DNA of 30,766 nt. Source: a virus. Lineage: Duplodnaviria > Heunggongvirae > Uroviricota > Caudoviricetes. Each line of letters opens with the position of its first letter. Position 1 is the first letter of the stretch. A program made the translations under genes and the position numbers. Location of the stretch: the IMG/VR virus record IMGVR_UViG_2537561688_000008. One strand, given 5' to 3'. Positions 1 through 23,273 of the stretch are shown here, piece after piece. The notes below the pieces were generated by a model. The model worked only from the letters and a program-made list of their open reading frames with translations. It was not told the origin of the DNA and did not search any database.

Positions 1-555
1 GAGGAAGAAGTCGAGAGAGTGGTCGGCATTTACGCGCCGCATCTCGGCGCGCGTCATATTCATATCACCAGAACGACGGACTGGCGCATTGTGCCGAAAG
101 TTCCGGTCGTTGAGCCCTTGACTTTAAAAAGCGGCATCGCCGCGCCTCGGAGTCCTGTCAATAACTGTGGAAAGCTCACCGGTGGTGATACTTCGTTACC
201 GGCTCCCACACCTTCTGAGCACGCCGCAGCAGTGCTTAATCTGGTTGATGACGGTGTTATTGAATGGAATGAACCGGAGGTCGTGAGGGCGCTCAGGGGC
301 GCATTAAAATACGACCTGAGAACGCCAAACCGTCAGCAAAGAAACGGAAGCCCGTTAAAACCGCATGAAATTGCACCATCTGCCAGACTGACCAGGTCTG
401 AACGATTGCAAATCACCCGTATCCGCGTTGACCTTGCTCAGAACGGTATCAGGCCGCAGCGATGGGAGCTTGAGGCGCTGGCGCGTAGAGCGACCGTAAA
501 TTATGACGGGAAAAAATTCACGTATCCGGTCGCTGATGGTTGGGGGGATTCATAG
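1..555 (+). CDS. C-terminal part of a phage replication initiation protein (P2 gpA-like); 5' end lies outside the window
   Basis: Open frame runs from base 1 with no stop (the track's ORF 19-555 is its in-window portion). Sits immediately upstream of the cargo island and cos site, where gene A lies in an integrated P2 genome. Identity rests on synteny and recollection, not alignment. Confidence 0.4.
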   Translation, partial: EEEVERVVGIYAPHLGARHIHITRTTDWRIVPKVPVVEPLTLKSGIAAPRSPVNNCGKLTGGDTSLPAPTPSEHAAAVLNLVDDGVIEWNEPEVVRALRGALKYDLRTPNRQQRNGSPLKPHEIAPSARLTRSERLQITRIRVDLAQNGIRPQRWELEALARRATVNYDGKKFTYPVADGWGDS

Positions 556-804
556 GGCGCTTTGATTATTTCTGTGTTTGACATAGAATAGCCCCGTTAC
601 CGCTTGGGACATCTACTTTGCATTACTCTTGGTATTAGCTTTGTACAAAGGGTATAAAGGCTGCTATTGGCAACAATAGTGCTGGCATGGAGATTGCCTC
701 ATGTTAAAGCTAGTGAATGTACGCCAGTACAACCGCTACCGCTTTGGGCGTTGGGAGACGGTGCGTAAGCACCGTCGTTCTTACCCAAAACGATAATATG
801 CGGC

Positions 805-3021
805 CTAAGCGGTAACGTTCTCCTCTTCTAGTTCGTCCATCATTTTTAAATAATGCATTTCGTCACCAGTAGCTGAAAATATTGTTCTCAATTGTTTTAG
901 GTATTTATCTGGGTCTATGTCGCCCATATCAGTAATATTTACCGCATCAGAGTGAGAACCTCTGTTAATGTATCTGTAGAATGCTTTGAAATCACTGTTG
1001 CTATCGTCGCGTGCCAACTTTGTTAATTCATCTTGTAGAGCATCTGTTCTATGAACAAATGCAAAATAATATTCTAGTATGTTTCTCATAATATTAGGTA
1101 TTATGATTTTGTTTGCTTTGCCATCTTTTGCATCTTTTAATATTTGCCACAAAGATTGATATTCATTCTGTATGCTGTTTTTTTGTATTTCAGTAATTAT
1201 ACTAAAATCATTTTTCGTTACTCTACCTAGATAATAGTTTTTCTTAAATAGTTTGTCTTCTCTGCTTTTAGGAGATAGCTTAATAAGTTCATGAAAGAAA
1301 TAAAGATTGTGAGTAAGGATTAATACCTTCTTTGTTAATTCATTTTTTATAATGTGGTGATGAATAATTGATGCGATGTCGTAGACATAGTTTTGCGATA
1401 GACTAGATATTGGATCGTCAATAACAATAAAAATATCCCTGCTATCGGTATCATTTTTATCGGTTTTACCTTTACAGCACTCTAAAAAATAAAGAAACGT
1501 TATTAGTGTTTTTTCACCTTCGCTAAGAGATCTATAAACATTTTGGTTTTTTGTATGCCCTGGTCGAGATATAATGTACATATCTTTTCTTTCTGCATGT
1601 TTTTCAATACAAAAACCAGAGATCCCTAGATTTTTTAAATGGGTGTTTATTGAGTCTATCGTAGAATCAATGTTAGATATTTTATCTCGCAATGCTTTTA
1701 TTGTGAGATTATTTTCTTTTCCTTGTTGCTCAATATTATTTAATTCATCATGAACTTTCTTTTTGATATCAAAGAATTTTTCTTTGTGTTTGGATAAATT
1801 CTCTAAATCATCGCTGCAAAAAGCATGGAGAGCCCCCCAAACTTGTTTTCCGATTTTATTCTCATACTCTTTGAGTTTTTTAACCTTATCATTTATGTCT
1901 CTTATTTTTTTGTTAACAGCGTCTATGCTTTCCTGAACATGATTTTCTAGTTCTTTATCAATTTCTAATGTAACGCATGTTGATGGATTGTTGATCTTAT
2001 CAATAATGTTTATTAAATTTTTTTCTGCAATGTTTTGCAATATTTTAATATTGGAAATAATGATCTCTTTATCTTTCTCATTGATTAGTGCACATGATGA
2101 TATATTGTTTTGTATTTCGTTAAAATGATATATGGTATTTTTCTCATAAACTGACTTTATATCTGAGAGCTGTTTTACTTTCTTTGAATAACTTTCGTCA
2201 AATATTGATTTAAGGGCATTTAAAAATTCGCGACTAATAGTTTTTTCCTGACAAAACGGACATGTAGAACCGTCTAAATAATGTTCTTTACCTTTTTTTA
2301 CCCAGTCAAGATTATGAAGTTTATTAATGGTTTCTGATAAATAGCTATTGCTTGTATCTATTATAGGTGTTGCTAATGTATTTACATCATCAATTGATGG
2401 GGTATATGGGTGTAAAGGAGTTATTAATGCGGTTTCATTGTTTCTATTTTCTAATAGTATAGAGTATTCTTTTGCTATATCATTTAAATTAATAAAGGTG
2501 ATTGGTGAGGATGATTTTATCATCTCAAAAAAAGGTCTTTTATAGCCAACTTTACCTTTCATTAAGATTTTTAGTACAGAGTTTCTGATTGGTTCTGTTT
2601 TTTTCCAGATCGATTCGATGTATTCATTTTCTTTTTTTTCCATTTCTGCTTCTAATTTCAATAACACTCCTTTTTTTTGTCTATATTGCTCTGTAAGTTG
2701 CTGTTTAATTGCTTCTTTTTTAATTAATTGTTTTTCAATATCTGCATTTTCTTTACTTAATGTAAAAACACCTTTTTGTTCCTGTGCATTGTAGAAATTA
2801 TCTTCAATAAATTTAGTGTTGTAAACAAGAGGTTTGTAATTGTCAAGAAGGGTACATTCACACTCGTTATAATCTGTGTGTGTAGAGTCGTAGAAATAAT
2901 TTGAAATGGTAGATTTGCCACAACCATTTTGGCCGTATAGTATGTTTACTCTTTTTTCAAGATTCAGTATTGTGAAGGCGTCTTTCTTATAACTGGTAAC
3001 ATTTTTTAATCTAAGTTCCAT
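805..3021 (-). CDS. ABC-type ATPase with coiled-coil insert and C-terminal putative nuclease domain; RloC/PrrC-like candidate anti-phage protein (cargo island 1)
   Basis: Intact 738-aa ORF. Walker A GQNGCGKST near the N-terminus; ABC-signature-like LSEGEK, Walker B-like IFIVIDDP and H-loop-like LILTHN about 480 aa later; K/E-rich heptad-like stretches in between; CPFC motif mid-insert; C-terminal R-x3-E (RNILE) and R-x6-H (RYINRGSH). Visibly AT-rich compared with the flanking phage genes. GAGG lies 7 nt upstream of the ATG on the minus strand. Confidence 0.6.
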   Translation of the reverse strand: MELRLKNVTSYKKDAFTILNLEKRVNILYGQNGCGKSTISNYFYDSTHTDYNECECTLLDNYKPLVYNTKFIEDNFYNAQEQKGVFTLSKENADIEKQLIKKEAIKQQLTEQYRQKKGVLLKLEAEMEKKENEYIESIWKKTEPIRNSVLKILMKGKVGYKRPFFEMIKSSSPITFINLNDIAKEYSILLENRNNETALITPLHPYTPSIDDVNTLATPIIDTSNSYLSETINKLHNLDWVKKGKEHYLDGSTCPFCQEKTISREFLNALKSIFDESYSKKVKQLSDIKSVYEKNTIYHFNEIQNNISSCALINEKDKEIIISNIKILQNIAEKNLINIIDKINNPSTCVTLEIDKELENHVQESIDAVNKKIRDINDKVKKLKEYENKIGKQVWGALHAFCSDDLENLSKHKEKFFDIKKKVHDELNNIEQQGKENNLTIKALRDKISNIDSTIDSINTHLKNLGISGFCIEKHAERKDMYIISRPGHTKNQNVYRSLSEGEKTLITFLYFLECCKGKTDKNDTDSRDIFIVIDDPISSLSQNYVYDIASIIHHHIIKNELTKKVLILTHNLYFFHELIKLSPKSREDKLFKKNYYLGRVTKNDFSIITEIQKNSIQNEYQSLWQILKDAKDGKANKIIIPNIMRNILEYYFAFVHRTDALQDELTKLARDDSNSDFKAFYRYINRGSHSDAVNITDMGDIDPDKYLKQLRTIFSATGDEMHYLKMMDELEEENVTA

Positions 3022-3336
3022 TTTTATGCCTCATACGATAAAGCTTTTATTGTATGTAAAAAAGCAGCTTAATATAGCCACTTAGTGGTAAAGATCTACC
3101 TTAAGACTTTGATATGTGCAAGAGGCATATAACGTAAGTGTTCGTTGAGCCAAATGTGTTTACGCTATGACGAGTTGGTCGTTTTTTGACAATCCTGTAG
3201 GAGCTATAGATAGGCGTATATTAAGTGCGTGTTTTTGCATGTGTCAGATACTATTCTTTTTGTCAGTTTCGGTCAGTGCTGATGTGATTTCAGTTTCATC
3301 ATGCAACTGCATTAAAACCGCCCCATGAAGCGGGCG

Positions 3337-3524: not shown

Positions 3525-4559
3525 TCAGCCGTTGTCAGGGTCCAGTGAGTAGTTTTTAAAGCGGATGACCTCCTGACCGAGCCAGCCGTTTATCTCGCGG
3601 ATCCTGTCCTGTAACGGGATAAGTTCATTGCGGACAAAGACCTTTGCCACTTTCTCAATATCACCCAGCGACCCGACGTTCTCCGGCTTGCCACCCATCA
3701 ACTGAAAGGGGATGCGGTGCGCGTCCAGCAGGTCAGCGGCGCTGGCTTTTTTGATATTAAAAAAATCGTCCTTCGTCGCCACTTCACTGAGGGGGATAAT
3801 TTTAATGCCGTCGGCTTTCCCCTGTGGGGCATAGAGAAACAGGTTTTTAAAGTTGTTGCGGCCTTTCGACTTGACCATGTTTTCGCGAAGCATTTCGATA
3901 TCGTTGCGGTCCTGCACGGCATCGGTGACGTACATGATGTATCCGGCATGTGCGCCGTTTTCGTAATACTTGCGGCGGAACAGCGTGGCCGACTCATTCA
4001 GCCAGGCAGAGTTAAGGGCGCTGAGATATTCCGGCAGACCGTACAGCTCCTGATTAATATCCGGCTCCAGCAGGTGAAACACGGAGCCGGGCGCGAAAGG
4101 TGTCGGCTCGTTGAAGGACGGCACCCACCAGTAAACATCCTCTTCCACGCCACGGCGGGTATATTTTGCCGGTGAGGTTTCCAGTCTGATGACCTTACCG
4201 GTGGTGCTGTATCGCTTTTCCAGAAACGCATTACCGAACACCAGAAAGTCCAGCACAAAGCGGCTGAAATTCTGCTGTGAAAGCCACGGATGCGGGATAA
4301 ATGTCGAGGCCAGAATATTGCGTTTAACGTAAATCGGTGAGCTGTGATGCACGGCAGCACGCAGGCTTTTTGCCAGACCGGTAAAGCTGACCGGTGGCTC
4401 ATACCATCTGCCGTTACTGATGCACTCGACGTAATCCAGAATGTCACGGCGGTCGAGTACCGGCACCGGCTCACCAAAGGTGAATGCCTCCATTTTCGGG
4501 GCGCTGGCGGTCATTGTTTTTGCCGCAGGTTGCGGTGTTTTCCCTTTTTTCTTGCTCAT
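3525..4559 (-). CDS. Q: portal protein (P2 gpQ-like)
   Basis: 344-aa ORF starting MSKKKGKTPQPAAKTMTAS, same length as P2 gpQ; divergent from O and adjacent to P as in P2. Confidence 0.9.
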   Translation of the reverse strand: MSKKKGKTPQPAAKTMTASAPKMEAFTFGEPVPVLDRRDILDYVECISNGRWYEPPVSFTGLAKSLRAAVHHSSPIYVKRNILASTFIPHPWLSQQNFSRFVLDFLVFGNAFLEKRYSTTGKVIRLETSPAKYTRRGVEEDVYWWVPSFNEPTPFAPGSVFHLLEPDINQELYGLPEYLSALNSAWLNESATLFRRKYYENGAHAGYIMYVTDAVQDRNDIEMLRENMVKSKGRNNFKNLFLYAPQGKADGIKIIPLSEVATKDDFFNIKKASAADLLDAHRIPFQLMGGKPENVGSLGDIEKVAKVFVRNELIPLQDRIREINGWLGQEVIRFKNYSLDPDNG

Positions 4560-6331
4560 CAGTAAAACTCCAGAATGGTGGATGTCAGCGGGGTGCTGAT
4601 ACCGGCGGTGAGTGGCTCATTTAACAGGGCGTGCATGGTTGCCCAGGCGAGGTCGGCGTGGCTGGCTTCCTCGCTGCGGCTGGCCTCATAGGTGGCGCTG
4701 CGTCCGCTGCTGGTTATGGTCTTGCGGATAGCCATAAACGAGCTGGTGATGTCGGTGGCGCTGACGTCATATTCCAGACAGCCACGGCGGATGACGTCTT
4801 TTGCTTTGAGCACCATTGCGGTTTTCATTTCCGGCGTGTAGCGGATGTCGCGCGCGGCGGGATAGAACGAGCGCACGAGCTGGAACACGCCGACACCGAG
4901 GCCGGTGGCATCAATACCGATGTATTCGACGTTGTATTTTTCGGTGAGTTTGCGGATGGATTCCGCCTGAGTGGCAAAGTCCATGCCTTTCCACTGGTGA
5001 CGCTCAAGTATTCTGAATTTGCCACCGGCCACCACCGGCGGTGCCAGTACCACGCATCCGGCGCTGTCGCCACGGTGTGACGGGTCGTAACCAATCCATA
5101 CCGGACGTGAGCCGAACGGATTGGCGGCAAACGGCGCATAGTCTTCCCATTCTTCCAGCGTGTCGACCATGCAGCGTTGCAGCTCCTCAAACGGGAACAC
5201 CGATGCCTTGTCGTCAACAAATTCACACATGAACAGGTTTTTAAAATCGTCGGCGCTGTTTTCGCGTTTGAGCTGCTCAATGTCGAACAGCGTGCAGCCA
5301 CCTTTCAGGGCGTCCTCAATGGTGACAATCTGCCGCCACTGGCCGTCCGCACAGAGAAGACCACCGGCAAGGGCGTTATGACTGACGTCGATTTCCACAC
5401 GTTCGGCGGCGCTGGCGCGTCCCCGGTTGAACAGTTCACCCGACCAGAACGGGTAGGCGTCGTGCGCCAGCGTGGACGGGGTGGAGAAATAGGTCGAGCG
5501 CAGGTGACTCTGTGAGGCCATACCTGATGCCACCTTACGCAGTACCTGAAAATTCGGGATCCAGAAAATCTCATCGACGTACAGGTCGCCGTTATGGCTC
5601 TGTGCGGTGTTGGAGTTGGTGCCGAGAAAAATCAGTTTTGCGCCGTTATTGCCCAGGACAATCGGGTCACCGGTCAGGTCAACGTCAACCAGCCGGGCAA
5701 AGGCGATGATGTATTCACGGAACACATACGCCTGCGTTTTACTGGCCGACAGAAAAATCTGGTTATGACCGGTTTTCAGGGCGCGCAGCAGCGCCTCGCG
5801 GGAAAAATAAAACGTCGCGCCAATCTGGCGGGATTTCAGGATATCGCGGATGCGGTGCTCAAGCCCGGCGCGATACCAGCGCAACTGATATTCGAAAGAC
5901 TGCTCAAAGAAAATCTGCTCCAGCTTTTCGATGGCCTCGTCACTGAAAAAATTCTTTTTCGGTTTGCGACGCCCGCCTTTGTTGCGGTTAGCAACGTTCG
6001 GATTAAGGTCTGCCTCGTTGCCGGTCTGACTGTAACGGTTGACCCGTGCCAGTCGTTCAATCTGGCGTCCGAGCAGGTCAATTTCCTTGAAGTCACCGCC
6101 GGTTTTCTGCGGTTTGATGATGAGCTGGGTCAGCCGCGCTTCCAGACTCATTTCGACACGGCTGATGGGAGCAACGCTGTCCCAGCCGTCGCGCTGCTTC
6201 CAGCTCTGCACCGTCGGGCGCTTCATCTGCAACATGGCGGCAATCTGCGGCACGGAAAATCCCTGCCAGTACAGCAGCGCCGCCTGACGACGCGGGTCGT
6301 GTAAAAGAGTGGTGTCTGTGGTGATGGTCAT
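4559..6331 (-). CDS. P: terminase large (ATPase) subunit (P2 gpP-like)
   Basis: Track ORF is 600 aa; start placed at the internal Met (MTITTDTTLL) with GAGG 5 nt upstream, giving 590 aa. Walker-type terminase ATPase adjacent to Q. Confidence 0.88.
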   Translation of the reverse strand: MTITTDTTLLHDPRRQAALLYWQGFSVPQIAAMLQMKRPTVQSWKQRDGWDSVAPISRVEMSLEARLTQLIIKPQKTGGDFKEIDLLGRQIERLARVNRYSQTGNEADLNPNVANRNKGGRRKPKKNFFSDEAIEKLEQIFFEQSFEYQLRWYRAGLEHRIRDILKSRQIGATFYFSREALLRALKTGHNQIFLSASKTQAYVFREYIIAFARLVDVDLTGDPIVLGNNGAKLIFLGTNSNTAQSHNGDLYVDEIFWIPNFQVLRKVASGMASQSHLRSTYFSTPSTLAHDAYPFWSGELFNRGRASAAERVEIDVSHNALAGGLLCADGQWRQIVTIEDALKGGCTLFDIEQLKRENSADDFKNLFMCEFVDDKASVFPFEELQRCMVDTLEEWEDYAPFAANPFGSRPVWIGYDPSHRGDSAGCVVLAPPVVAGGKFRILERHQWKGMDFATQAESIRKLTEKYNVEYIGIDATGLGVGVFQLVRSFYPAARDIRYTPEMKTAMVLKAKDVIRRGCLEYDVSATDITSSFMAIRKTITSSGRSATYEASRSEEASHADLAWATMHALLNEPLTAGISTPLTSTILEFY

Positions 6332-6504
6332 GAATACCTCGCCGTGATGAATACACGGCAAGGCTACTGAGTCGCGCCCCGCGATTCGCTAAGGTGCTGT
6401 TGTGTCAGTGATAAGCCATCCGGGACTGATGGCGGAGGATGCGCATCGTCGGGAAACTGATGCCGACATGTGACTCCTCTAATCACTATTCAGGACTCCT
6501 GACA

Positions 6505-15179: not shown

Positions 15180-17474
15180 ATGAGCACAAAATTCAGAACC
15201 GTTATCACCACTGCCGGTGCAGCAAAGCTGGCAGCGGCAACCGCACCGGGAGGGCGGAAGGTCAATATTACCACGATGGCCGTCGGGGATGGCGGGGGTA
15301 AATTGCCTGTCCCGGATGCCGGACAGACCGGGCTTATCCACGAAGTCTGGCGACATGCGCTGAACAAAATCAGCCAGGACAAACGAAACAGTAATTATAT
15401 TATCGCAGAGCTGGTTATTCCGCCGGAGGTGGGCGGTTTCTGGATGCGTGAACTTGGCCTGTACGATGATGCGGGAACGCTAATTGCCGTGGCGAACATG
15501 GCCGAAAGTTATAAGCCAGCCCTTGCCGAAGGCTCAGGGCGTTCGCAGACCTGCGCATGGTCATCATCGTCAGCAGTGTGGCCTCAGTGGGCTGACCATT
15601 GACACCACAACGGTGATGGCACGCAGGATTACGTTGATGACAAAATTGCAGACATGAACAGTCACGACGTCACCCGACGCCTCGCTGACCGCAAAAGGTT
15701 TTACTCAGTTAAGCATGCGACCAACAGCACGTCTGAAACACTGGCCGCAACGCCGAAAGCGGTAAAGGCCGCGTATGACTTGCTAACGGGAAATAACGCC
15801 AGGAGCCACCAAGCGCGAAAAGGCCTTGTCCAGCTCAGTAGGCCACCAACAGCACGTCTGAAACGCTGCGCAACCCAAAGCGGTAAAGGCAGCATATGAC
15901 CTGCTAACGGGAAATAACGCACAGGAGCCACCACGCGCGAAAAGGTCTTGTCCAGCTCAGTAGCGCACCAACAGCGATTCTGAAACGCTTGCGGCAACGC
16001 CAAAGGCGGTTAAGACAGCGTATGACCTTGCTAACGGGAAATACACTGCACAGGAGCCACCACGGCGCGGAAAGGTCTTGTTCAGCTCAGTAGCGCCACC
16101 AACAGCGATTCTGAAACGCTGGCTGCAACATCAAAAGCGGTGAAGTCTGCCTATGACAATGCTGAAAAACGTCTTCAGAAAGATCAGAACGGTGCGGATA
16201 TTCCGGGAAAGGATACCTTCACGAAAAATATCGGTGCCTGTCGTGCTTATAGCGGCGCTTTGAGCACTGAAGCCGGAAACTGGACAACCGCTCAGTTTAT
16301 TGAATGGCTGGATTCCCGTGGTGCATTTAATCATCCGTACTGGATGTGCAAAGGCTCCTGGTCATATGCAAATAACAAAATCATTACGGATACCGGATGT
16401 GGTGATATCCACCTGGCTGGTTGTGTCGTCGAGGTCATGGGAACTAAATCTGCAATCACTATCCGAGTGACCACGCCGACAACATCAAGTGGTGGCGGTA
16501 CAACCAGCGCGCAATTCACTTACATTAATCATGGGGACGGCTACTCCCCCGGCTGGCGTCGTGACTGGAATCGTCAGGGCGACGCAATGACCGGAACGAT
16601 TAATCAGGATGGCGGAAGCCAGAATGCCTATATGTCTACGGCCTTATGTTCAGGCACCAGAGGCGGCAAAAAATATCTCAGAAAGTTTCGTGGTGGAGAA
16701 GGAGACACTATCTGGCATGAAACAGTACAGGGCGGGGTAGTTCGCTGGGCGACTGGTAATACTGATGCTCAGGAAGAATTATCACTCAGCTCCGCTTATG
16801 GTCTCCGTTCAAGAGGTGAGATTACATCACTCAGTGCTAATGGTCTGCGCATTGCTTATGGCAATTATGGTTTCTTTATCAGGAATGATGGCAGCAGCAC
16901 TTATTTTATGTTGACTAAATCAGGTGACAGATTAGGCAGTTATAATAATTTAAGACCGCTGATTATAAATGATGCCACGGGTGCTGTATCAATGGGGCAT
17001 GGCCTGAATGTTACTGGTGATATTGTCTCAAGTACCAAAGTACGTGCCGGTAGCGGGAAAAAATTCACGGTCAGCAGCAGTAATACATCCACGAAGGAAG
17101 CCGCATTCAATTTGTGGGGAAACTCAAGTCGTCCGGTGGTGGCTGAATTAGGTGATGATGCAGGCTGGCATTTTTACAGTCAGAGAAATACAGATAACAG
17201 CATCACTTTTGCTGTTAACGGGCAGGTATCACCATCTAACTATGGCAACTTTGATTCACGCTATGTCCGGGATATCCGGCTTGGTGGTGCTGCCACATAC
17301 AAACCTGCGAACAATGGCATGACATGGACACATCAGGCACCGTCCGGGTGTGTATATTCCGGCATTATTGTTCAGGATACCGGCTCAAACTCTGCCGATA
17401 ACATTGGTGGCATATATTACAGACCGGTGCAGAAATACATTAACGGGACATGGTATAACGTGGCGCAGGTATAA
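15180..17474 (+). pseudogene. H: tail fiber protein (P2 gpH-like); conserved N-terminus, frame-disrupted repeat region, distinct C-terminal receptor-binding part
   Basis: N-terminal 140 aa (MSTKFRTVITTAGAAKLAAATAPG...) stop at 15602; repeats at 15697-16140 are in shifting frames; a long intact ORF (16140-17474) encodes the distal fiber ending ...YINGTWYNVAQV. Confidence 0.7.
15697..16140 (+). repeat. About 3.5 imperfect tandem repeats (~122-131 bp unit) inside the tail fiber gene
   Basis: The unit ...gctcagtag(c)gccaccaacagc..tctgaaac.ctg..gcaac.ccaaagcggt.aag.c.gc.tatgac.tgctaacgggaaata...caggagccaccac.gcgcgaaaagg.cttgt.cagctcag recurs from ~15697, ~15839, ~15961 and ~16092, with small indels between copies. 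Confidence 0.7.
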
Positions 17475-17477
17475 TTT

Positions 17478-18005
17478 ATGCAGCATTTGATAAATATAAC
17501 GGTGGGTAATCCAAAAACGGTTGAACAATATCAATTGACAAAGGACTTTGATGTTGTCTGGTTTTTTTCAGAAGATGGTAAGAACTGGTACGAAGAACAA
17601 AAGTATTTTGCTGATGACACGATAAAAATAGCGTACGACAAAGATAATATTATCCGCTATGTGGAAAAGGATGTGACAGCTATCAGACCAGATGGATTAA
17701 GTGTGGTTGAAGTGGCGGATATTACTGCTAACCGACGGGCGGACATTTCAGGGAACTGGATGTTTAAGGACGGCAAAGTGATTAAACGCATTTATACGGC
17801 AGATGAATTGCAGCAGCAGGCAGAAAACCGGAAAGCCAGACTTCTTGCAGATGCTGAATCCGTGATTTTGCCACTGGAGCGCGCTGTCAGGCTGAACATG
17901 GCAACAGATGAGGAGCGTAGCCGACTGGAAGCATGGGAACGCTACAGTGTTCTGGTCAGCCGTGTGGATCCTGCAAATCCTGAATGGCCGGAAATGCCGC
18001 AATAA
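17478..18005 (+). CDS. G: tail fiber assembly chaperone (P2 gpG-like)
   Basis: 175-aa ORF directly after H, as in P2. Confidence 0.85.
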
Positions 18006-18480
18006 GTTGTATAAGCTCTGGTGTGAGATTACATATCTATGGCACAGAGTAAAGCCTAATCTGACAGTCCGCTCTGTGCCAAGAGCGGACGTTACTACTA
18101 CTCGACCTAAAGTAAAGCAATTGTACTCATTAAATAGTGGTAATTGGGTCTGGTGCTTAATCGAACGAAATCTCATGTTAGGCGAAAAAAACGTCTGAAA
18201 AATCGATTAACACATACACCTGTGTACTATGGCCGTTATTCAATTTAAAAGGAACCATTTCCGATATGATTCACTGTCCATAATGTTTTGATTTATTAAA
18301 AAAGAGCCTTAGAGTGTGAAACCATTACGTTGAGTGGCGAACACCATTAATAAATTCTGCTTATACTTACAGCATATATTATGTTCACGTCATATAACCA
18401 TGGCAAATAAGATATTGCACATCAAGCATGATTATGATAGTGATTACAAAAATGAAGAATCTTAGATAAAGGATTAGTAA

Positions 18481-19416
18481 GTGGTTACATATAATTCAAT
18501 GTTGTTACCCCCCCCTAAATCTTGGGACGAATTTGAGGATATGTGCAAAAGTTCATTCCAACTGCGATGGTCCAATCCTAATCTGAACAGACATGGACGG
18601 TCAGGGCAGCGGCAGGATGGAGTTGATGTATATGGTGATGACTCTCTTGGGCGTTTCGTTGGAATTCAGTGTAAAAATACAGTATCAGGAATCAGTACGG
18701 CGACAATCGATGATGAATTACTCAAGGCTGAAAAATTTCGCCCAAAAATTACGGTTCTTTACATCGCTACGACAGCGCCCAGGGATGTTAGCATTCAGCG
18801 CTATGTAAGAACACTCAATGATGCCAGACAATTAAAAGGCCTGTTTCCTGTCGATGTGGTTTTCTGGGAGGATATTAGCTTTGATTTAAGCAAAGACCCA
18901 GCTGTACTCAAAATGTACTACCCGCAAATGTTCGAACGACACCAACCGACGAGGGAAGAATTTTTGCGCAAGAGAGATATCTCAAATTTGTCGACATTGT
19001 TGAATGTTATTGATTTTCATTCAACAATAGAACATTTGCAGTGGGGCGCAAAATACATTCATTCATTAATTATTGAAGAATACGATAATATTTTGAACAT
19101 TTTAAACTCACCTGTTTTTCAACTGAATGATACAGCTTTAAAGAATGTTACAATTGATTTTGCAACGGCCTGGCGTGATCTAATTATCTTGTTTAGAAAA
19201 GCTCCATATAATTATTCAGCACCAAATGATACTTTTAGTTTTATAAATCCCGGTGACCACTGTCGAAATCAGGAGGAAAGCGATTTATACGACGAAATCA
19301 CGCATAGCATGAGTAATCTCAAAGATAAAATTAGTACTTTTTGTGACTTTATAAATAATCACTACCATGAAATAAACTTAACCGAAACGAGCGCGCAAGC
19401 CAGGAAATATTATTAA
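18481..19416 (+). CDS. Hypothetical protein with N-terminal Mrr-like restriction endonuclease (PD-(D/E)xK, D...QxK) motif and a C-terminal domain of unknown function (cargo island 2)
   Basis: Intact 311-aa ORF with a GTG start at 18481 and AAAGGA 7 nt upstream (alternative ATG at 18499). N-terminal segment ...WDEFEDMCKSS...GQRQDGVDVYGDDSLGRFVGIQCKN... fits the Mrr catalytic pattern (acidic, DGxD, then hydrophobic-QCK). AT-rich; lies between G and FI. Confidence 0.7.
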   Translation: MVTYNSMLLPPPKSWDEFEDMCKSSFQLRWSNPNLNRHGRSGQRQDGVDVYGDDSLGRFVGIQCKNTVSGISTATIDDELLKAEKFRPKITVLYIATTAPRDVSIQRYVRTLNDARQLKGLFPVDVVFWEDISFDLSKDPAVLKMYYPQMFERHQPTREEFLRKRDISNLSTLLNVIDFHSTIEHLQWGAKYIHSLIIEEYDNILNILNSPVFQLNDTALKNVTIDFATAWRDLIILFRKAPYNYSAPNDTFSFINPGDHCRNQEESDLYDEITHSMSNLKDKISTFCDFINNHYHEINLTETSAQARKYY

Positions 19417-19693
19417 TACTTTTTTCTTAAGGGCTGCACTCATGGCCCTTAACACCGTTAGACTGTCATATTTTGCAATCGATACGCAGTTAGGTACTTT
19501 CTTGAAGTCCGTTCCTCGCTCATAGCTGACATTCAGCTCAATTAACTCGTCCACTTCGCTCCAACAGAAGGCGTAGCTAATCATACTGTGTATTAAAGAA
19601 AGGAGAAACGATCATGTTGAGTACAAAAAACACGAAAGACCATGATAAGGAAAATATGCGTAGAGTGACTTAGTTTATTGATTTAAATAATAT

Positions 19694-19870
19694 TTATGGG
19701 GGTAAGTGCTTTGAATAAAAAAACAAAAATTGAGAAGATTTAGCTAGTGCCAAAATAATTTGGACACCGCCCGTCATCAGACCCGCTACTACACTTATCA
19801 CCCCAGCCCAAAAAGTTTCAATGAAACAAGATACATATAGTAGTACTACATGGCGGAATAATTTACTCAT
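19694..19870 (-). CDS. Small hydrophobic (probable membrane) protein, 58 aa
   Basis: Minus-strand ATG at 19870 preceded by TAAGGAG with a 6-nt spacer. Product MSKLFRHVVLLYVSCFIETFWAGVISVVAGLMTGGVQIILALAKSSQFLFFYSKHLPP has a clear transmembrane-like segment. The ORF could extend upstream to 19999 (101 aa), but that start has no RBS. Confidence 0.45.
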   Translation of the reverse strand: MSKLFRHVVLLYVSCFIETFWAGVISVVAGLMTGGVQIILALAKSSQFLFFYSKHLPP

Positions 19871-20200
19871 AGGCTTCTCCTTACTGACGTAATCGTTAAG
19901 TAACACGTTGAGGTAACGGATAAATGCGACTATTGGGAGAGCTGTGATGAGAATTGTAGGCATAGGAATCGAACCTATGGATGCACTAGCTAAATTCACT
20001 CTTCACGAATTATACAGCATTGTAGTGAGTTTGTAAATACACGCCCCAAAAGTCAATCAGTCCGCTCCATGAATGTTGTGTCAGTACTACTAAAGTTAAA
20101 CATGCTAAAATAGGTTCCCAATATTCGTGGGTACAATCACTATCTGTGTAACTGGCGGAAGCGCTGGCATAACGACGATGCCTATTCGGGGGGCTTTAAT

Positions 20201-21067
20201 ATGGTCCGTTTTAACTTACTAGAAAATGCGTTGGATTCAGTGGAAACCGGGCTGGACTACTTTAACAAAGCGCTAGAAGGGCATGATCGACGTGACTACA
20301 AACAGTGCCTGCTTAACCTCTTTCAGGCCGCTGAGCTATTGTTGAAGGCCGTAGTTTCGCGCAATGGGTCTGGAGCGATTTTTAATCCAGCATCGCTTCA
20401 AGAAAAATGTGTGGATCCGGCGCATCCAACCGAGTCAGAATTACACCAGTGTAAATCTGTCAACGTCAACCAGCTTTGTAAGCTGTTAAAGACATATTAC
20501 CCAGCCGAATTTTCTGAATCTGCATTACAAATGATGAAAACGGTGGGTCAGTTGCGTAATAACCTTCAGCATTTTGCCCTTGAGGTTCGTCCGCAAGAAC
20601 TGGCAATGCAACTGAGTGAACTGTACCAACAAATTTTTCGTCCCGCATTCGTCATAATTCAGTCAGATGAGACCGAAAATTCATGGAACTCTGATTTACG
20701 TCAAGACATCATCGCTCTTGAGCAACAATTCCTTGATATAACTGTTAACCAGGAATACACCCTTGCACTTTGTCCCGTTTGTGAGAGTTTTTCACATTTT
20801 ATCCTTTACCAAAGTGAAAGCTTTCCGGCACGGACTCACTGTATCTGTTGTGGTTTCAGCCTGAATAATCTGCAAACTTGGGATTTTCAGGAATGTCCTG
20901 AATGTAGTGTCCCATCCGTAATTTATTTACCGGAACAAAGGGTCGGTGTCTGTCTCTGGTATAAATGTGAATACAGCAAGATGGATGGTTTTGTTCCTAT
21001 GGAGCCTTGTGAATGTGGTGCATTCCGGATGGAAGGTCATTGCAGTAACTGCGATCTTGAGGAATAG
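20201..21067 (+). CDS. Hypothetical protein with N-terminal HEPN-like helical domain (Rx4H motif) and C-terminal cysteine-rich (multi-CxxC) zinc-ribbon-like region (cargo island 2)
   Basis: Intact 288-aa ORF. Helical N-terminal part contains LRNNLQHF (R-x4-H). The C-terminal ~110 aa carry paired cysteines (CPVC, CICC, CPEC, C-x-C, CSNC). AT-rich. Confidence 0.65.
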   Translation: MVRFNLLENALDSVETGLDYFNKALEGHDRRDYKQCLLNLFQAAELLLKAVVSRNGSGAIFNPASLQEKCVDPAHPTESELHQCKSVNVNQLCKLLKTYYPAEFSESALQMMKTVGQLRNNLQHFALEVRPQELAMQLSELYQQIFRPAFVIIQSDETENSWNSDLRQDIIALEQQFLDITVNQEYTLALCPVCESFSHFILYQSESFPARTHCICCGFSLNNLQTWDFQECPECSVPSVIYLPEQRVGVCLWYKCEYSKMDGFVPMEPCECGAFRMEGHCSNCDLEE

Positions 21068-21430
21068 TAAAATCGTCCGATGAGAATGTACAGCAGCCTG
21101 GTCGATGATTTCTTGATGAATCGCTGAATTATCCGGTATTACTTGACAACTAAATCGCACATTTCTGTTTCTGGCAATTTGAAAGGTTTACTCTATGCCC
21201 CAGAATTCAGCACATACATAAAAACACCATTTCAGAACGCGTCTTGATCCAAAGAACGACTGTATGATAGATAGGCGTCGTCGTGAGGACAGGAATGATC
21301 TACCCCCCGTTATTCATACAGAATGCTGTTAGTAATGTCCGCAGATCGCTCAAAGCAGACTGTCAGATTTGATAGCGTTTGGGCTATGTAAGTAGCCAGT
21401 TGGAGAATGAGTGAGTGCAAATCAGGACTG

Positions 21431-21460
21431 GCGGGCGAATTGCCCGCATTTTCTTTATCT
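21431..21460 (+). terminator. Rho-independent terminator between cargo island 2 and the FI operon
   Basis: GCGGGC-gaatt-GCCCGC stem-loop followed by attttctttatct (T-rich). Confidence 0.5.
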
Positions 21461-21552
21461 GTTGTTTCATCCACTGACCAGCCAGGTCAAATAGCGTCTC
21501 ATGCACTGCCCAACAGAAAATAGTTGCACCCATTAACCACGGAGTTAAACGG

Positions 21553-22743
21553 ATGAGTGACTATCATCACGGCGTGCAGGTGCTGGAGATTAACGACGGC
21601 ACCCGCGTCATTTCCACTGTATCCACTGCCATTGTCGGCATGGTCTGCACGGCCAGCGATGCGGATGCGGAAACCTTCCCCCTCAATAAACCTGTGCTGA
21701 TTACCAATGTGCAGAGCGCAATTGCAAAGGCCGGTAAAAAAGGCACGCTGGCGGCATCGTTGCAGGCCATCGCTGACCAGTCAAAACCGGTCACCGTTGT
21801 CGTGCGCGTGGAAGACGGCACCGGCGACGACGAAGAAACGAAACTTGCGCAGACCGTTTCCAATATCATCGGCACCACCGACGAAAACGGTCAGTACACC
21901 GGACTGAAAGCCCTGCTGGCGGCGGAGTCAGTAACCGGTGTTAAACCGCGTATTCTCGGCGTGCCGGGACTGGACACCAAAGAGGTGGCTGTTGCACTGG
22001 CATCAGTCTGTCAGAAGCTGCGCGCTTTCGGGTATATCAGCGCATGGGGCTGTAAAACCATTTCCGAGGTGAAAGCCTACCGCCAGAATTTCAGCCAGCG
22101 TGAGCTGATGGTCATCTGGCCGGATTTCCTCGCATGGGATACGGTCAGCAGCACCACCGCCACCGCGTATGCCACCGCCCGTGCGCTGGGGCTGCGTGCT
22201 AAAATCGACCAGGAGCAGGGCTGGCATAAAACGTTGTCCAACGTCGGGGTAAATGGTGTTACCGGCATCAGCGCATCTGTATTCTGGGATTTGCAGGAGT
22301 TCGGCACCGATGCTGACCTGCTTAACGAGTCAGGCGTCACTACGCTGATTCGCCGCGACGGTTTCCGCTTCTGGGGTAACCGTACCTGCTCTGATGACCC
22401 GCTGTTCCTCTTTGAAAACTATACCCGCACCGCGCAGGTGCTGGCCGACACGATGGCTGAGGCGCACATGTGGGCGGTGGACAAGCCCATCACCGCAACG
22501 CTGATTCGCGACATCGTTGACGGCATCAATGCCAAATTCGTGAGCTGAAAACAAACGGCTATATCGTGGATGCGACCTGCTGGTTCAGCGAAGAATCCAA
22601 CGATGCGGAAACCCTCAAGGCCGGAAAACTGTATATCGACTACGACTATACACCGGTGCCTCCTCTTGAAAACCTGACCCTGCGCCAGCGTATTACCGAT
22701 AAATACCTGGCAAATCTGGTCACTTCGGTTAACAGCAATTAAG
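21553..22743 (+). pseudogene. FI: tail sheath protein (P2 gpFI-like) with C-terminal frameshift
   Basis: 331-aa ORF (21553-22548) is followed without a gap by a second frame encoding ...ELKTNGYIVDATCWFSEESNDAETLKAGKLYIDYDYTPVPP... up to 22743; the combined span matches a ~396-aa sheath protein. Confidence 0.7.
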
Positions 22744-22754
22744 GAGCCTGACCG

Positions 22755-23273
22755 ATGGCAATGCCGCGCAAACTCAAGTTAATGAACGTCTTTCTGAACG
22801 GCTACAGCTATCAGGGCGTTGCAAAGTCCGTCACGCTGCCAAAACTGACCCGTAAGCTCGAAAACTATCGCGGTGCGGGGATGAACGGCAGCGCACCGGT
22901 AGACCTCGGCCTTGATGACGATGCGCTGTCAATGGAGTGGTCGCTCGGTGGCTTCCCGGATTCGGTTATCTGGGAGCTTTACGCCGCAACCGGCGTGGAT
23001 GCCGTCCCGATTCGTTTTGCAGGCTCTTACCAGCGTGACGATACCGGCGAAACGGTGGCCGTCGAGGTGGTCATGCGTGGACGTCAGAAAGAAATCGACA
23101 CCGGCGAGGGTAAACAGGGAGAAGACACCGAGTCGAAAATCTCCGTGGTCTGCACCTCTTTCCGGCTGACGATGGACGGTAAGGAGCTGGTCGAAATCGA
23201 CACCATCAACATGATTGAGAAGGTGAACGGCGTCGACCGGCTGGAGCAACACCGCCGCAATATCGGCCTGTGA
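22755..23273 (+). CDS. FII: tail tube protein (P2 gpFII-like)
   Basis: 172-aa ORF directly after the sheath gene. Confidence 0.85.
   Translation: MAMPRKLKLMNVFLNGYSYQGVAKSVTLPKLTRKLENYRGAGMNGSAPVDLGLDDDALSMEWSLGGFPDSVIWELYAATGVDAVPIRFAGSYQRDDTGETVAVEVVMRGRQKEIDTGEGKQGEDTESKISVVCTSFRLTMDGKELVEIDTINMIEKVNGVDRLEQHRRNIGL

Follow-up and report, generated by a model that had tools for sequence, protein, structure and literature searches.

A 311-aa protein encoded in the Z/fun hotspot of a P2-like prophage

The sequence analyzed here, IMG/VR record IMGVR_UViG_2537561688_000008 (Caudoviricetes; 30,766 nt, called the window when its full length is meant), carries on its plus strand an open reading frame (ORF) of 311 codons plus a stop codon at 18481..19416. 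This gene and its product, an N-terminal nuclease-like domain joined to a second, C-terminal domain (C domain), are the subject of this study. As the initial annotation of this DNA had reported, the ORF begins with GTG and has a good ribosome binding site, an AAGGA Shine-Dalgarno sequence (18469..18473, plus strand) that direct reading of the sequence places 7 nt 5´ of the start codon. The gene is present in the ORF list and corresponds to RefSeq WP_001399106.1, with matching coordinates in H1. In an alignment of 48 full-length relatives, M1 is invariant (it is aligned with the Met of 47 homologues) and T3 nearly so. The invariance of M1 supports the GTG start, while the model for PHROG 8991 ("unknown function") begins at M7 instead. 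The protein has 173 homologues, down to 35% identity, and the gene itself was found at ≥99% identity in 13 of 5,426 complete E. coli genomes, all of which list it as "hypothetical protein". Full-length relatives, to 36% identity, are encoded by Serratia, Atlantibacter, Leclercia, Vibrio, Pantoea, Pseudomonas, Chromohalobacter and Desulfonema. With these homologues, the near-identical E. coli copies and a mean predicted local distance difference test score (pLDDT) of 90.6 for the AlphaFold2 (AF2) model, the ORF is a real gene and more than a chance reading frame, as its start codon and ribosome binding site had suggested. Scans for promoters and terminators revealed no convincing candidates for the gene. 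A GC-rich hairpin of 9 bp lies 11 nt past the stop codon (19427..19452, plus strand; folding energy -12.3 kcal/mol, z -2.2), with a T-run before but none after it. It is thus not a canonical intrinsic terminator and was not flagged by the terminator scan, and its role is uncertain.

The gene (38% GC) is located in a low-GC accessory island of ~3.5 kb (18006..21552; GC fraction 0.403 versus 0.526 for the rest of the window). Upstream, the island is flanked by a tail fibre gene (16140-17474) and a tail-fibre assembly gene (Caudo_TAP, 17478-18005) and, downstream, by the tail sheath (Phage_sheath, 21553 onward), tube, tape-measure and gpD genes; in RefSeq, the island is likewise surrounded by P2-like tail genes. 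Variable DNA between the tail-fibre/assembly and sheath genes is what defines cargo of the Z/fun hotspot, the second defence-enriched locus of P2-like prophages according to Vassallo et al. (PMC9519451), which was found again in the iLund4u preprint (bioRxiv 10.1101/2024.10.15.618418). The island is present in 13 E. coli genomes, and in 1,085 genomes only parts of the 18000-21550 query found a match. It consists of two independent cassettes, of which the left carries the 311-aa gene and the right is described in the last section.

The N-terminal half resembles Mrr-type PD-(D/E)xK nucleases

Residues 1-152 (18481..18936, plus strand) are predicted to form an Mrr-type PD-(D/E)xK nuclease domain. 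Here the initial annotation had noted an acidic patch followed by the D...QxK arrangement of Mrr-family catalytic domains. All of these motifs are present, as SWDEFED (residues 14-20), GQRQDGVDVYGDD (residues 42-54) and RFVGIQCKN (residues 58-66), and the acidic patch does more than precede the motif, as E19 within it is itself a motif residue. E19 (18535..18537) is the active-site glutamate of helix 1 (DEFED) and by position is equivalent to E172 in the SRFEV motif of EcoKMrr; D49 (18625..18627), the predicted metal-binding aspartate of GQRQDGVD at the start of strand 50-53, is equivalent to D203 (GDGGIDG); and Q63-C64-K65 (18667..18675), the QxK half of the motif on strand 59-65, is equivalent to Q219-A-K221 (all plus strand). 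We examined conservation in two sets, the 48 full-length homologues and 49 relatives that have only the N-terminal domain in common with the window protein, and E19, D49, Q63 and K65 are invariant in both. The AF2 model places E19 on helix 1, D49 at the start of a strand and Q63 and K65 on the strand that follows, which is the arrangement of PD-(D/E)xK enzymes, and the predicted structure has the alpha-beta-beta-beta-alpha-beta core of the Mrr-type branch of this superfamily. Conserved E...D...(Q/E)xK residues in the EcoKMrr motif order, together with this core fold, bear out the proposed nuclease arrangement, and the closest characterized structural neighbours of the domain are the Type IV enzymes MspJI and AspBHI (PDB 4f0p and 4oc8).

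Formal Pfam membership, on the other hand, did not hold. The N-terminal domain scored 11.9 bits against Pfam Mrr_cat (PF04471; E 0.26, gathering cut-off 21) and 12.1 bits against Mrr_cat_2 (PF13156; E 0.18, cut-off 22), and thus reached neither curated threshold. Among the relatives, weak Mrr_cat matches were obtained for 11 of 48 full-length and 9 of 49 N-domain-only proteins (best E 4e-4) and weak Mrr_cat_2 matches for 21 of the 49 N-domain-only proteins (best E 1.2e-3). An hhalign comparison of the family profile with the single EcoKMrr sequence gave no signal (Prob 0.2). Modelled fold and motif therefore support assignment of the domain to the Mrr-type PD-(D/E)xK nucleases, outside the curated Pfam family, and suggest that it would act as a nuclease.

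The comparison with characterized enzymes points to likeness in the active site and difference in the layout. For EcoKMrr, a helix Glu, G-x-D, h-Q-x-K and then an h-I-(T/A)-T-(S/T) strand follow in the same order as in the window protein (SRFE172V/GDGGID203G/VQ219AK221/FITTSGF and DEFE19D/GQRQDGVD49V/IQ63CK65N/YIATTAP, respectively), with a D-to-Q spacing of 15 residues in EcoKMrr and 13 here. EcoKMrr, however, has its winged-helix domain at the N-terminus and its catalytic domain at the C-terminus, and in MspJI the nuclease likewise comes last, after an SRA-like reader of modified bases at the N-terminus, whereas in the window protein the nuclease is N-terminal and its partner is a four-helix bundle. 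The match to MspJI and AspBHI covers only ~129 residues at 14% identity. Another structural match, the archaeal protein AF1548 (PDB 1y88), says nothing about mechanism because it is only 12% identical to the window protein and has no known function. The neighbourhood of MspJI and AspBHI and the EcoKMrr-like D...QxK chemistry, along with the solitary position of the gene with no methyltransferase nearby, would fit a Type IV modification-dependent restriction enzyme, in which recognition of modified phage DNA would fall to the C domain and its direct cleavage to the Mrr-type domain, with no abortive infection. The reversed domain order and the lack of hhalign signal speak against this, as do two properties of the C domain described below.

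The nuclease half is a cassette in its own right. It is ~50% identical across very distant taxa and is also joined to two other, apparently unrelated C-termini, of ~145 aa (hhalign to the C domain E 0.013, Prob 3%) and ~213 aa (no hhalign match). On plasmids, it further heads an archaeal protein of 1,055 aa that contains an nSTAND NTPase and MalT-like tetratricopeptide repeats (TPRs). A TPR protein of Cupriavidus (1,344 aa), which has a PIN-TPR-GreABC domain and whose gene adjoins a SIR2 gene, begins with it as well. The N-terminus of nSTAND/TPR proteins is the usual place of the effector in immune receptors. Another N-domain-only relative sits between a BsuBI/PstI restriction-modification system and an AAA_13 gene. 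An Mrr-like nuclease is likewise N-terminal in Avs4 and other STAND/Avs receptors (PDB 8dgf), but Avs proteins exceed 1,000 aa, while the window protein has 311 aa, no NTPase and no repeats; STAND NTPase or repeat families were detected only in the distant N-domain relatives.

The C-terminal half is a four-helix bundle with a conserved polar signature

The C-terminal part had been described as ~200 aa without any recognized motif. The domain is shorter, at ~157 aa (residues 155-311; 18943..19413, plus strand), but the second half of this description is accurate, since residues 155-311 match no family in Pfam, NCBIfam or PADLOC, and phmmer and profile hmmsearch of PDB with the full protein or the C domain returned chance matches only. 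When residues 155-311 were modelled alone, AF2 gave a pLDDT of 96.8 and a predicted TM-score (pTM) of 0.90, and the domain is thus predicted to fold autonomously, as a four-helix bundle with a beta-hairpin insert. All structural matches to the C domain were four-helix bundles, with no specific solved homologue, and no SRA, winged-helix or other DNA-binding fold was detected among them, which is the first of the two points against a reader of modified DNA.

The conserved signature of the domain is R-x-R-D / F-x-L-x-D / W / Y-x-E-I-D. Percentages given for it refer to 108 proteins in which the C domain follows a non-Mrr N-terminus. The first motif, R163-K-R165-D166 (18967..18978), includes D166, found in 100% of these proteins and invariant in the 48 full-length homologues, as well as R165 (80%) and R163 (73%). 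F213 is kept in 95%, and W231 (19171..19173) in 92% and in all 48 full-length homologues. In the last motif, Y295-H-E297-I-N299 (19363..19377), which corresponds to Y-x-E-I-D/N, the Y is kept in 90%, the E in 92% and D/N in 85% (all plus strand).

Properties of this kind can be read in more than one way. We consider the bundle a candidate sensor or regulatory module. Alternatively, the C domain could be a scaffold or oligomerization module, or an adaptor that docks varied effectors to a host component or to a sensor encoded at a distance. Four-helix bundles often serve oligomerization, and Mrr-type nucleases and TIR domains generally require self-association to act (FokI, MspJI and the TIR NADases). 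The strong conservation of D166, F213 and W231 across hosts, unlike the fast diversification of the sensors in many immune receptors, points in the same direction. What weighs on the other side is the genomic distribution of the domain, considered below.

The C domain is found behind at least six classes of effector

With a profile of the C domain based on 14 family members, we searched 1.84 billion representative proteins. This yielded 544 clusters (50% identity) at E≤1e-3, 247 of them with E≤1e-10, and matches that nearly always span the whole domain, from Proteobacteria, Acidobacteria, Desulfobacterota and candidate phyla. An Mrr-like N-terminal domain was also present in only ~22 of the best 146 C-domain clusters. 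The proteins without it are typically 330-370 aa long and have varied N-termini. Among 70 of these that were scanned, the N-terminus was a CAP12/Pycsar-type TIR domain in 59, and a nucleoside 2-deoxyribosyltransferase (Nuc_deoxyrib_tr) match was found in eight, a CHAT protease in two, and a PNP_UDP_1 phosphorylase, a TIR_2 domain and a protein kinase in one each, the last at residues 27-231 and PD-T4-6/Stk2-like in PADLOC. One C-domain protein (P0168) has a multi-pass transmembrane N-terminus. These partners are the standard repertoire of abortive-infection effectors, and the C domain as a module common to at least six effector classes is the new element of the finding.

The TIR-fused proteins are the relatives most similar in organization to the window protein. 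They match the C domain over its full length (E 1e-28 to 1e-15) and have a similar size, a single-gene layout and defence-island contexts, with a CAP12/Pycsar-type TIR-like effector in place of the nuclease. Likewise uncharacterized, they are annotated as "nucleotide-binding protein" or "TIR domain-containing protein", have PF10137 as their only Pfam domain and match PADLOC only over the TIR part.

The range of partners is the second point that bears on Type IV restriction. The C domain is mostly fused to effectors that do not act on DNA (TIR-like NADase-type, CHAT, kinase, phosphorylase and transmembrane), and a dedicated reader of modified bases is hard to reconcile with such fusions. Modification-dependent restriction is therefore an unlikely account of the window protein, for all the resemblance of its nuclease half to MspJI and EcoKMrr.

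Some C-domain proteins depart from the two-module layout. In P0203 (509 aa), the C domain is N-terminal (residues 51-200) and is followed by ~300 aa without a Pfam match. Several proteins of ~175 aa (P0121, P0133 and P0158) contain little beyond the C domain, which could mean that the domain also exists on its own or that these gene calls are truncated. At 510-3064 of locus L017, a CHAT + C-domain protein (P0244) is encoded directly after a second gene, for a CHAT + KTSC protein. This is the only case we saw in which a C-domain protein might have a dedicated partner.

Relatives are encoded beside defence systems and on mobile elements

The loci of homologues of the 311-aa protein are diverse. 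The Serratia homologue directly follows KwaA/KwaB (Kiwa), the Vibrio homologue is within an AlpA/RadC/DUF2787 mobile element, the Pantoea homologue is encoded at the margin of a P2-like prophage and the Desulfonema homologue adjoins an IS605 TnpB and HigB/helix-turn-helix genes. The Pseudomonas homologue is in an integrase island and the Leclercia homologue on a phage-plasmid. TIR-fused C-domain proteins adjoin, at separate loci, an integrase, a DUF4062-STAND protein together with HsdM, and a KAP NTPase, and a further one is part of a Tn7-like element that also carries a reverse-transcriptase system and Gabija. One Aeromonas context was unremarkable.

In the loci examined, we observed neither a conserved neighbour gene nor a second copy of either domain nearby. 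Homotypic adaptor pairing with a neighbour was rejected since no locus has a second domain copy. The same two negatives weigh against the C domain being a scaffold or adaptor, and mobility on prophages, phage-plasmids and Tn7-like elements argues against a host-specific partner. Despite the conservation of the bundle and the requirement of its effectors for self-association, we regard a scaffolding or docking role as rather unlikely. No cyclase or cGAS/DncV-like nucleotidyltransferase (CD-NTase) is present beside the gene or any C-domain protein, in the window or in loci L001-L025. In the absence of an adjacent cyclase, a cyclic-nucleotide-activated effector of the CBASS (cyclic oligonucleotide-based anti-phage signalling system) or Pycsar type was rejected as well. 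A search of PADLOC-DB v2.0 with the 311-aa protein gave 0 families at E≤1.

A proposed single-protein sensor-effector system

Both halves of the protein are shuffled independently, the partners of the C domain are those of abortive infection, the gene occupies a defence hotspot, and its relatives are found among defence systems and mobile elements. Collectively, these observations point to a protein made of a sensor or regulator plus an effector. We favour, with some confidence, the view that the gene is a "moron" carried by a P2-like prophage at its Z/fun hotspot and that its product works alone, as an immunity protein of two modules directed against phages. Probably, the protein represents a new anti-phage system on its own, best classed as single-protein sensor-effector defence with a new constant domain.

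We infer from this evidence nuclease activity, a defence phenotype, a sensing role for the C domain, the nature of the trigger and a part for oligomerization, and the system might operate as follows. The N-terminal Mrr-type DNase, in which the E19...D49...Q63-x-K65 site is intact, would be the effector, and the C-terminal four-helix bundle of ~155 aa the sensing or regulatory part. In an uninfected lysogen, the C domain would keep the nuclease inactive. Upon infection, a cue, either a phage protein or a small ligand, would bind the surface formed by the R-x-R-D / F-x-L-x-D / W / Y-x-E-I-D signature and cause a conformational change or oligomerization, whereupon the nuclease would cut DNA. Phage replication would thereby come to a halt, and the cell itself might be sacrificed.

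A broader and more tentative proposal, which we consider possible but would not yet favour, is that the C domain defines a new and widespread family of single-protein immune sensors, in which one receptor couples a common infection signal to any effector and needs no NTPase, cyclase or partner. Were the domain a sensor, it would be among the smallest sensor modules known in bacterial immunity and, at ~155 aa, would offer a tractable one-gene system in which to study by what means a minimal receptor can activate effectors of widely differing kinds. The conserved polar signature suggests a conserved trigger, which could be a small molecule or a core feature of phage or host. The gene also extends the P2 Z/fun hotspot by a candidate system and flags a compact, regulated nuclease cassette, and the C-domain profile could annotate hundreds of proteins now named "hypothetical", "nucleotide-binding" or "TIR domain-containing".

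With regard to novelty, neither the protein nor its accession or motifs were found described in Rousset 2022, Vassallo 2022, the 2026 NAR P2/P4 study or the DefensePredictor paper and supplements, though other papers or newer DefenseFinder models may cover it. The DefensePredictor paper reports many validated PD-(D/E)xK-containing systems from E. coli. Given such systems, a prophage nuclease fused to an unknown domain is unsurprising in itself.

Neighbouring cassette and other features of the prophage

The right cassette of the island (~19505-21360) comprises a small minus-strand ORF and a gene for a 288-aa protein (20201-21067, plus strand) with a HEPN/DUF3644-like N-terminus and a Cys-rich, zinc-ribbon-like C-terminus, which matches PADLOC PDC-S64 (E 4.3e-21). 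In other E. coli, this cassette is found alone, at 99% identity, beside lambdoid stfR/tfa tail-fibre genes. A two-gene system made up of the 311-aa protein and its HEPN-like neighbour was rejected, because the cassette occurs without the 311-aa gene and is never beside its homologues. A 101-aa hydrophobic ORF (19694-19999, minus strand), of which only a 58-aa part is annotated in RefSeq, travels with the HEPN-like gene (96% identical in L002) and may be its partner.

At the junction between the cassettes, a convergent 68-aa ORF (19378-19584, minus strand) shares 39 nt with the 3´ end of the 311-aa gene and gives a full-length match to phrog_8904 (E 5.5e-51). This match and a possible defect of the prophage (see below) are the grounds for denying the gene a role in defence, be it as the toxin of an addiction or toxin-antitoxin module with the 68-aa ORF as antitoxin, as a nuclease of the prophage life cycle or as a decaying remnant. 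The 68-aa ORF is unannotated in RefSeq, however, no homologue has it alongside, and the DNA for its first 28 residues is part of the right cassette. It was rejected as an antitoxin or partner on these grounds and is probably a junction artefact and not a gene. More generally, the neighbours expected of a type II toxin-antitoxin system were not seen, as neither the 68-aa and 101-aa ORFs nor the 288-aa gene is ever beside homologues. Homologues also reside outside prophages, in chromosomal islands and on plasmids, and the strong conservation of the catalytic and C-domain signature residues indicates that the gene is not decaying. The chance that the protein has no part in defence thus appears very small, and a sensor-effector function remains the reading we prefer.

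Two further observations concern the prophage itself. The tail sheath ORF (21553-22760, plus strand) loses its frame and reaches a stop after 331 aa (...GINAKFVS*), while the RefSeq sheath homologue in an otherwise identical island has 396 aa. This reflects either a frameshift, as in a defective prophage, or a sequencing error in the window. At the other end of the window, a 738-aa ORF (805-3021, minus strand) matches the PADLOC candidate PDC-S06 (E 4.8e-254) and, more weakly, PrrC/LmuB/AriA-like ABC-ATPases. It adjoins ORFs taken as portal and terminase (3525-6361, minus strand), a position that corresponds to old/tin, the other P2 hotspot. With this match, the prophage has candidate defence genes at both hotspots.
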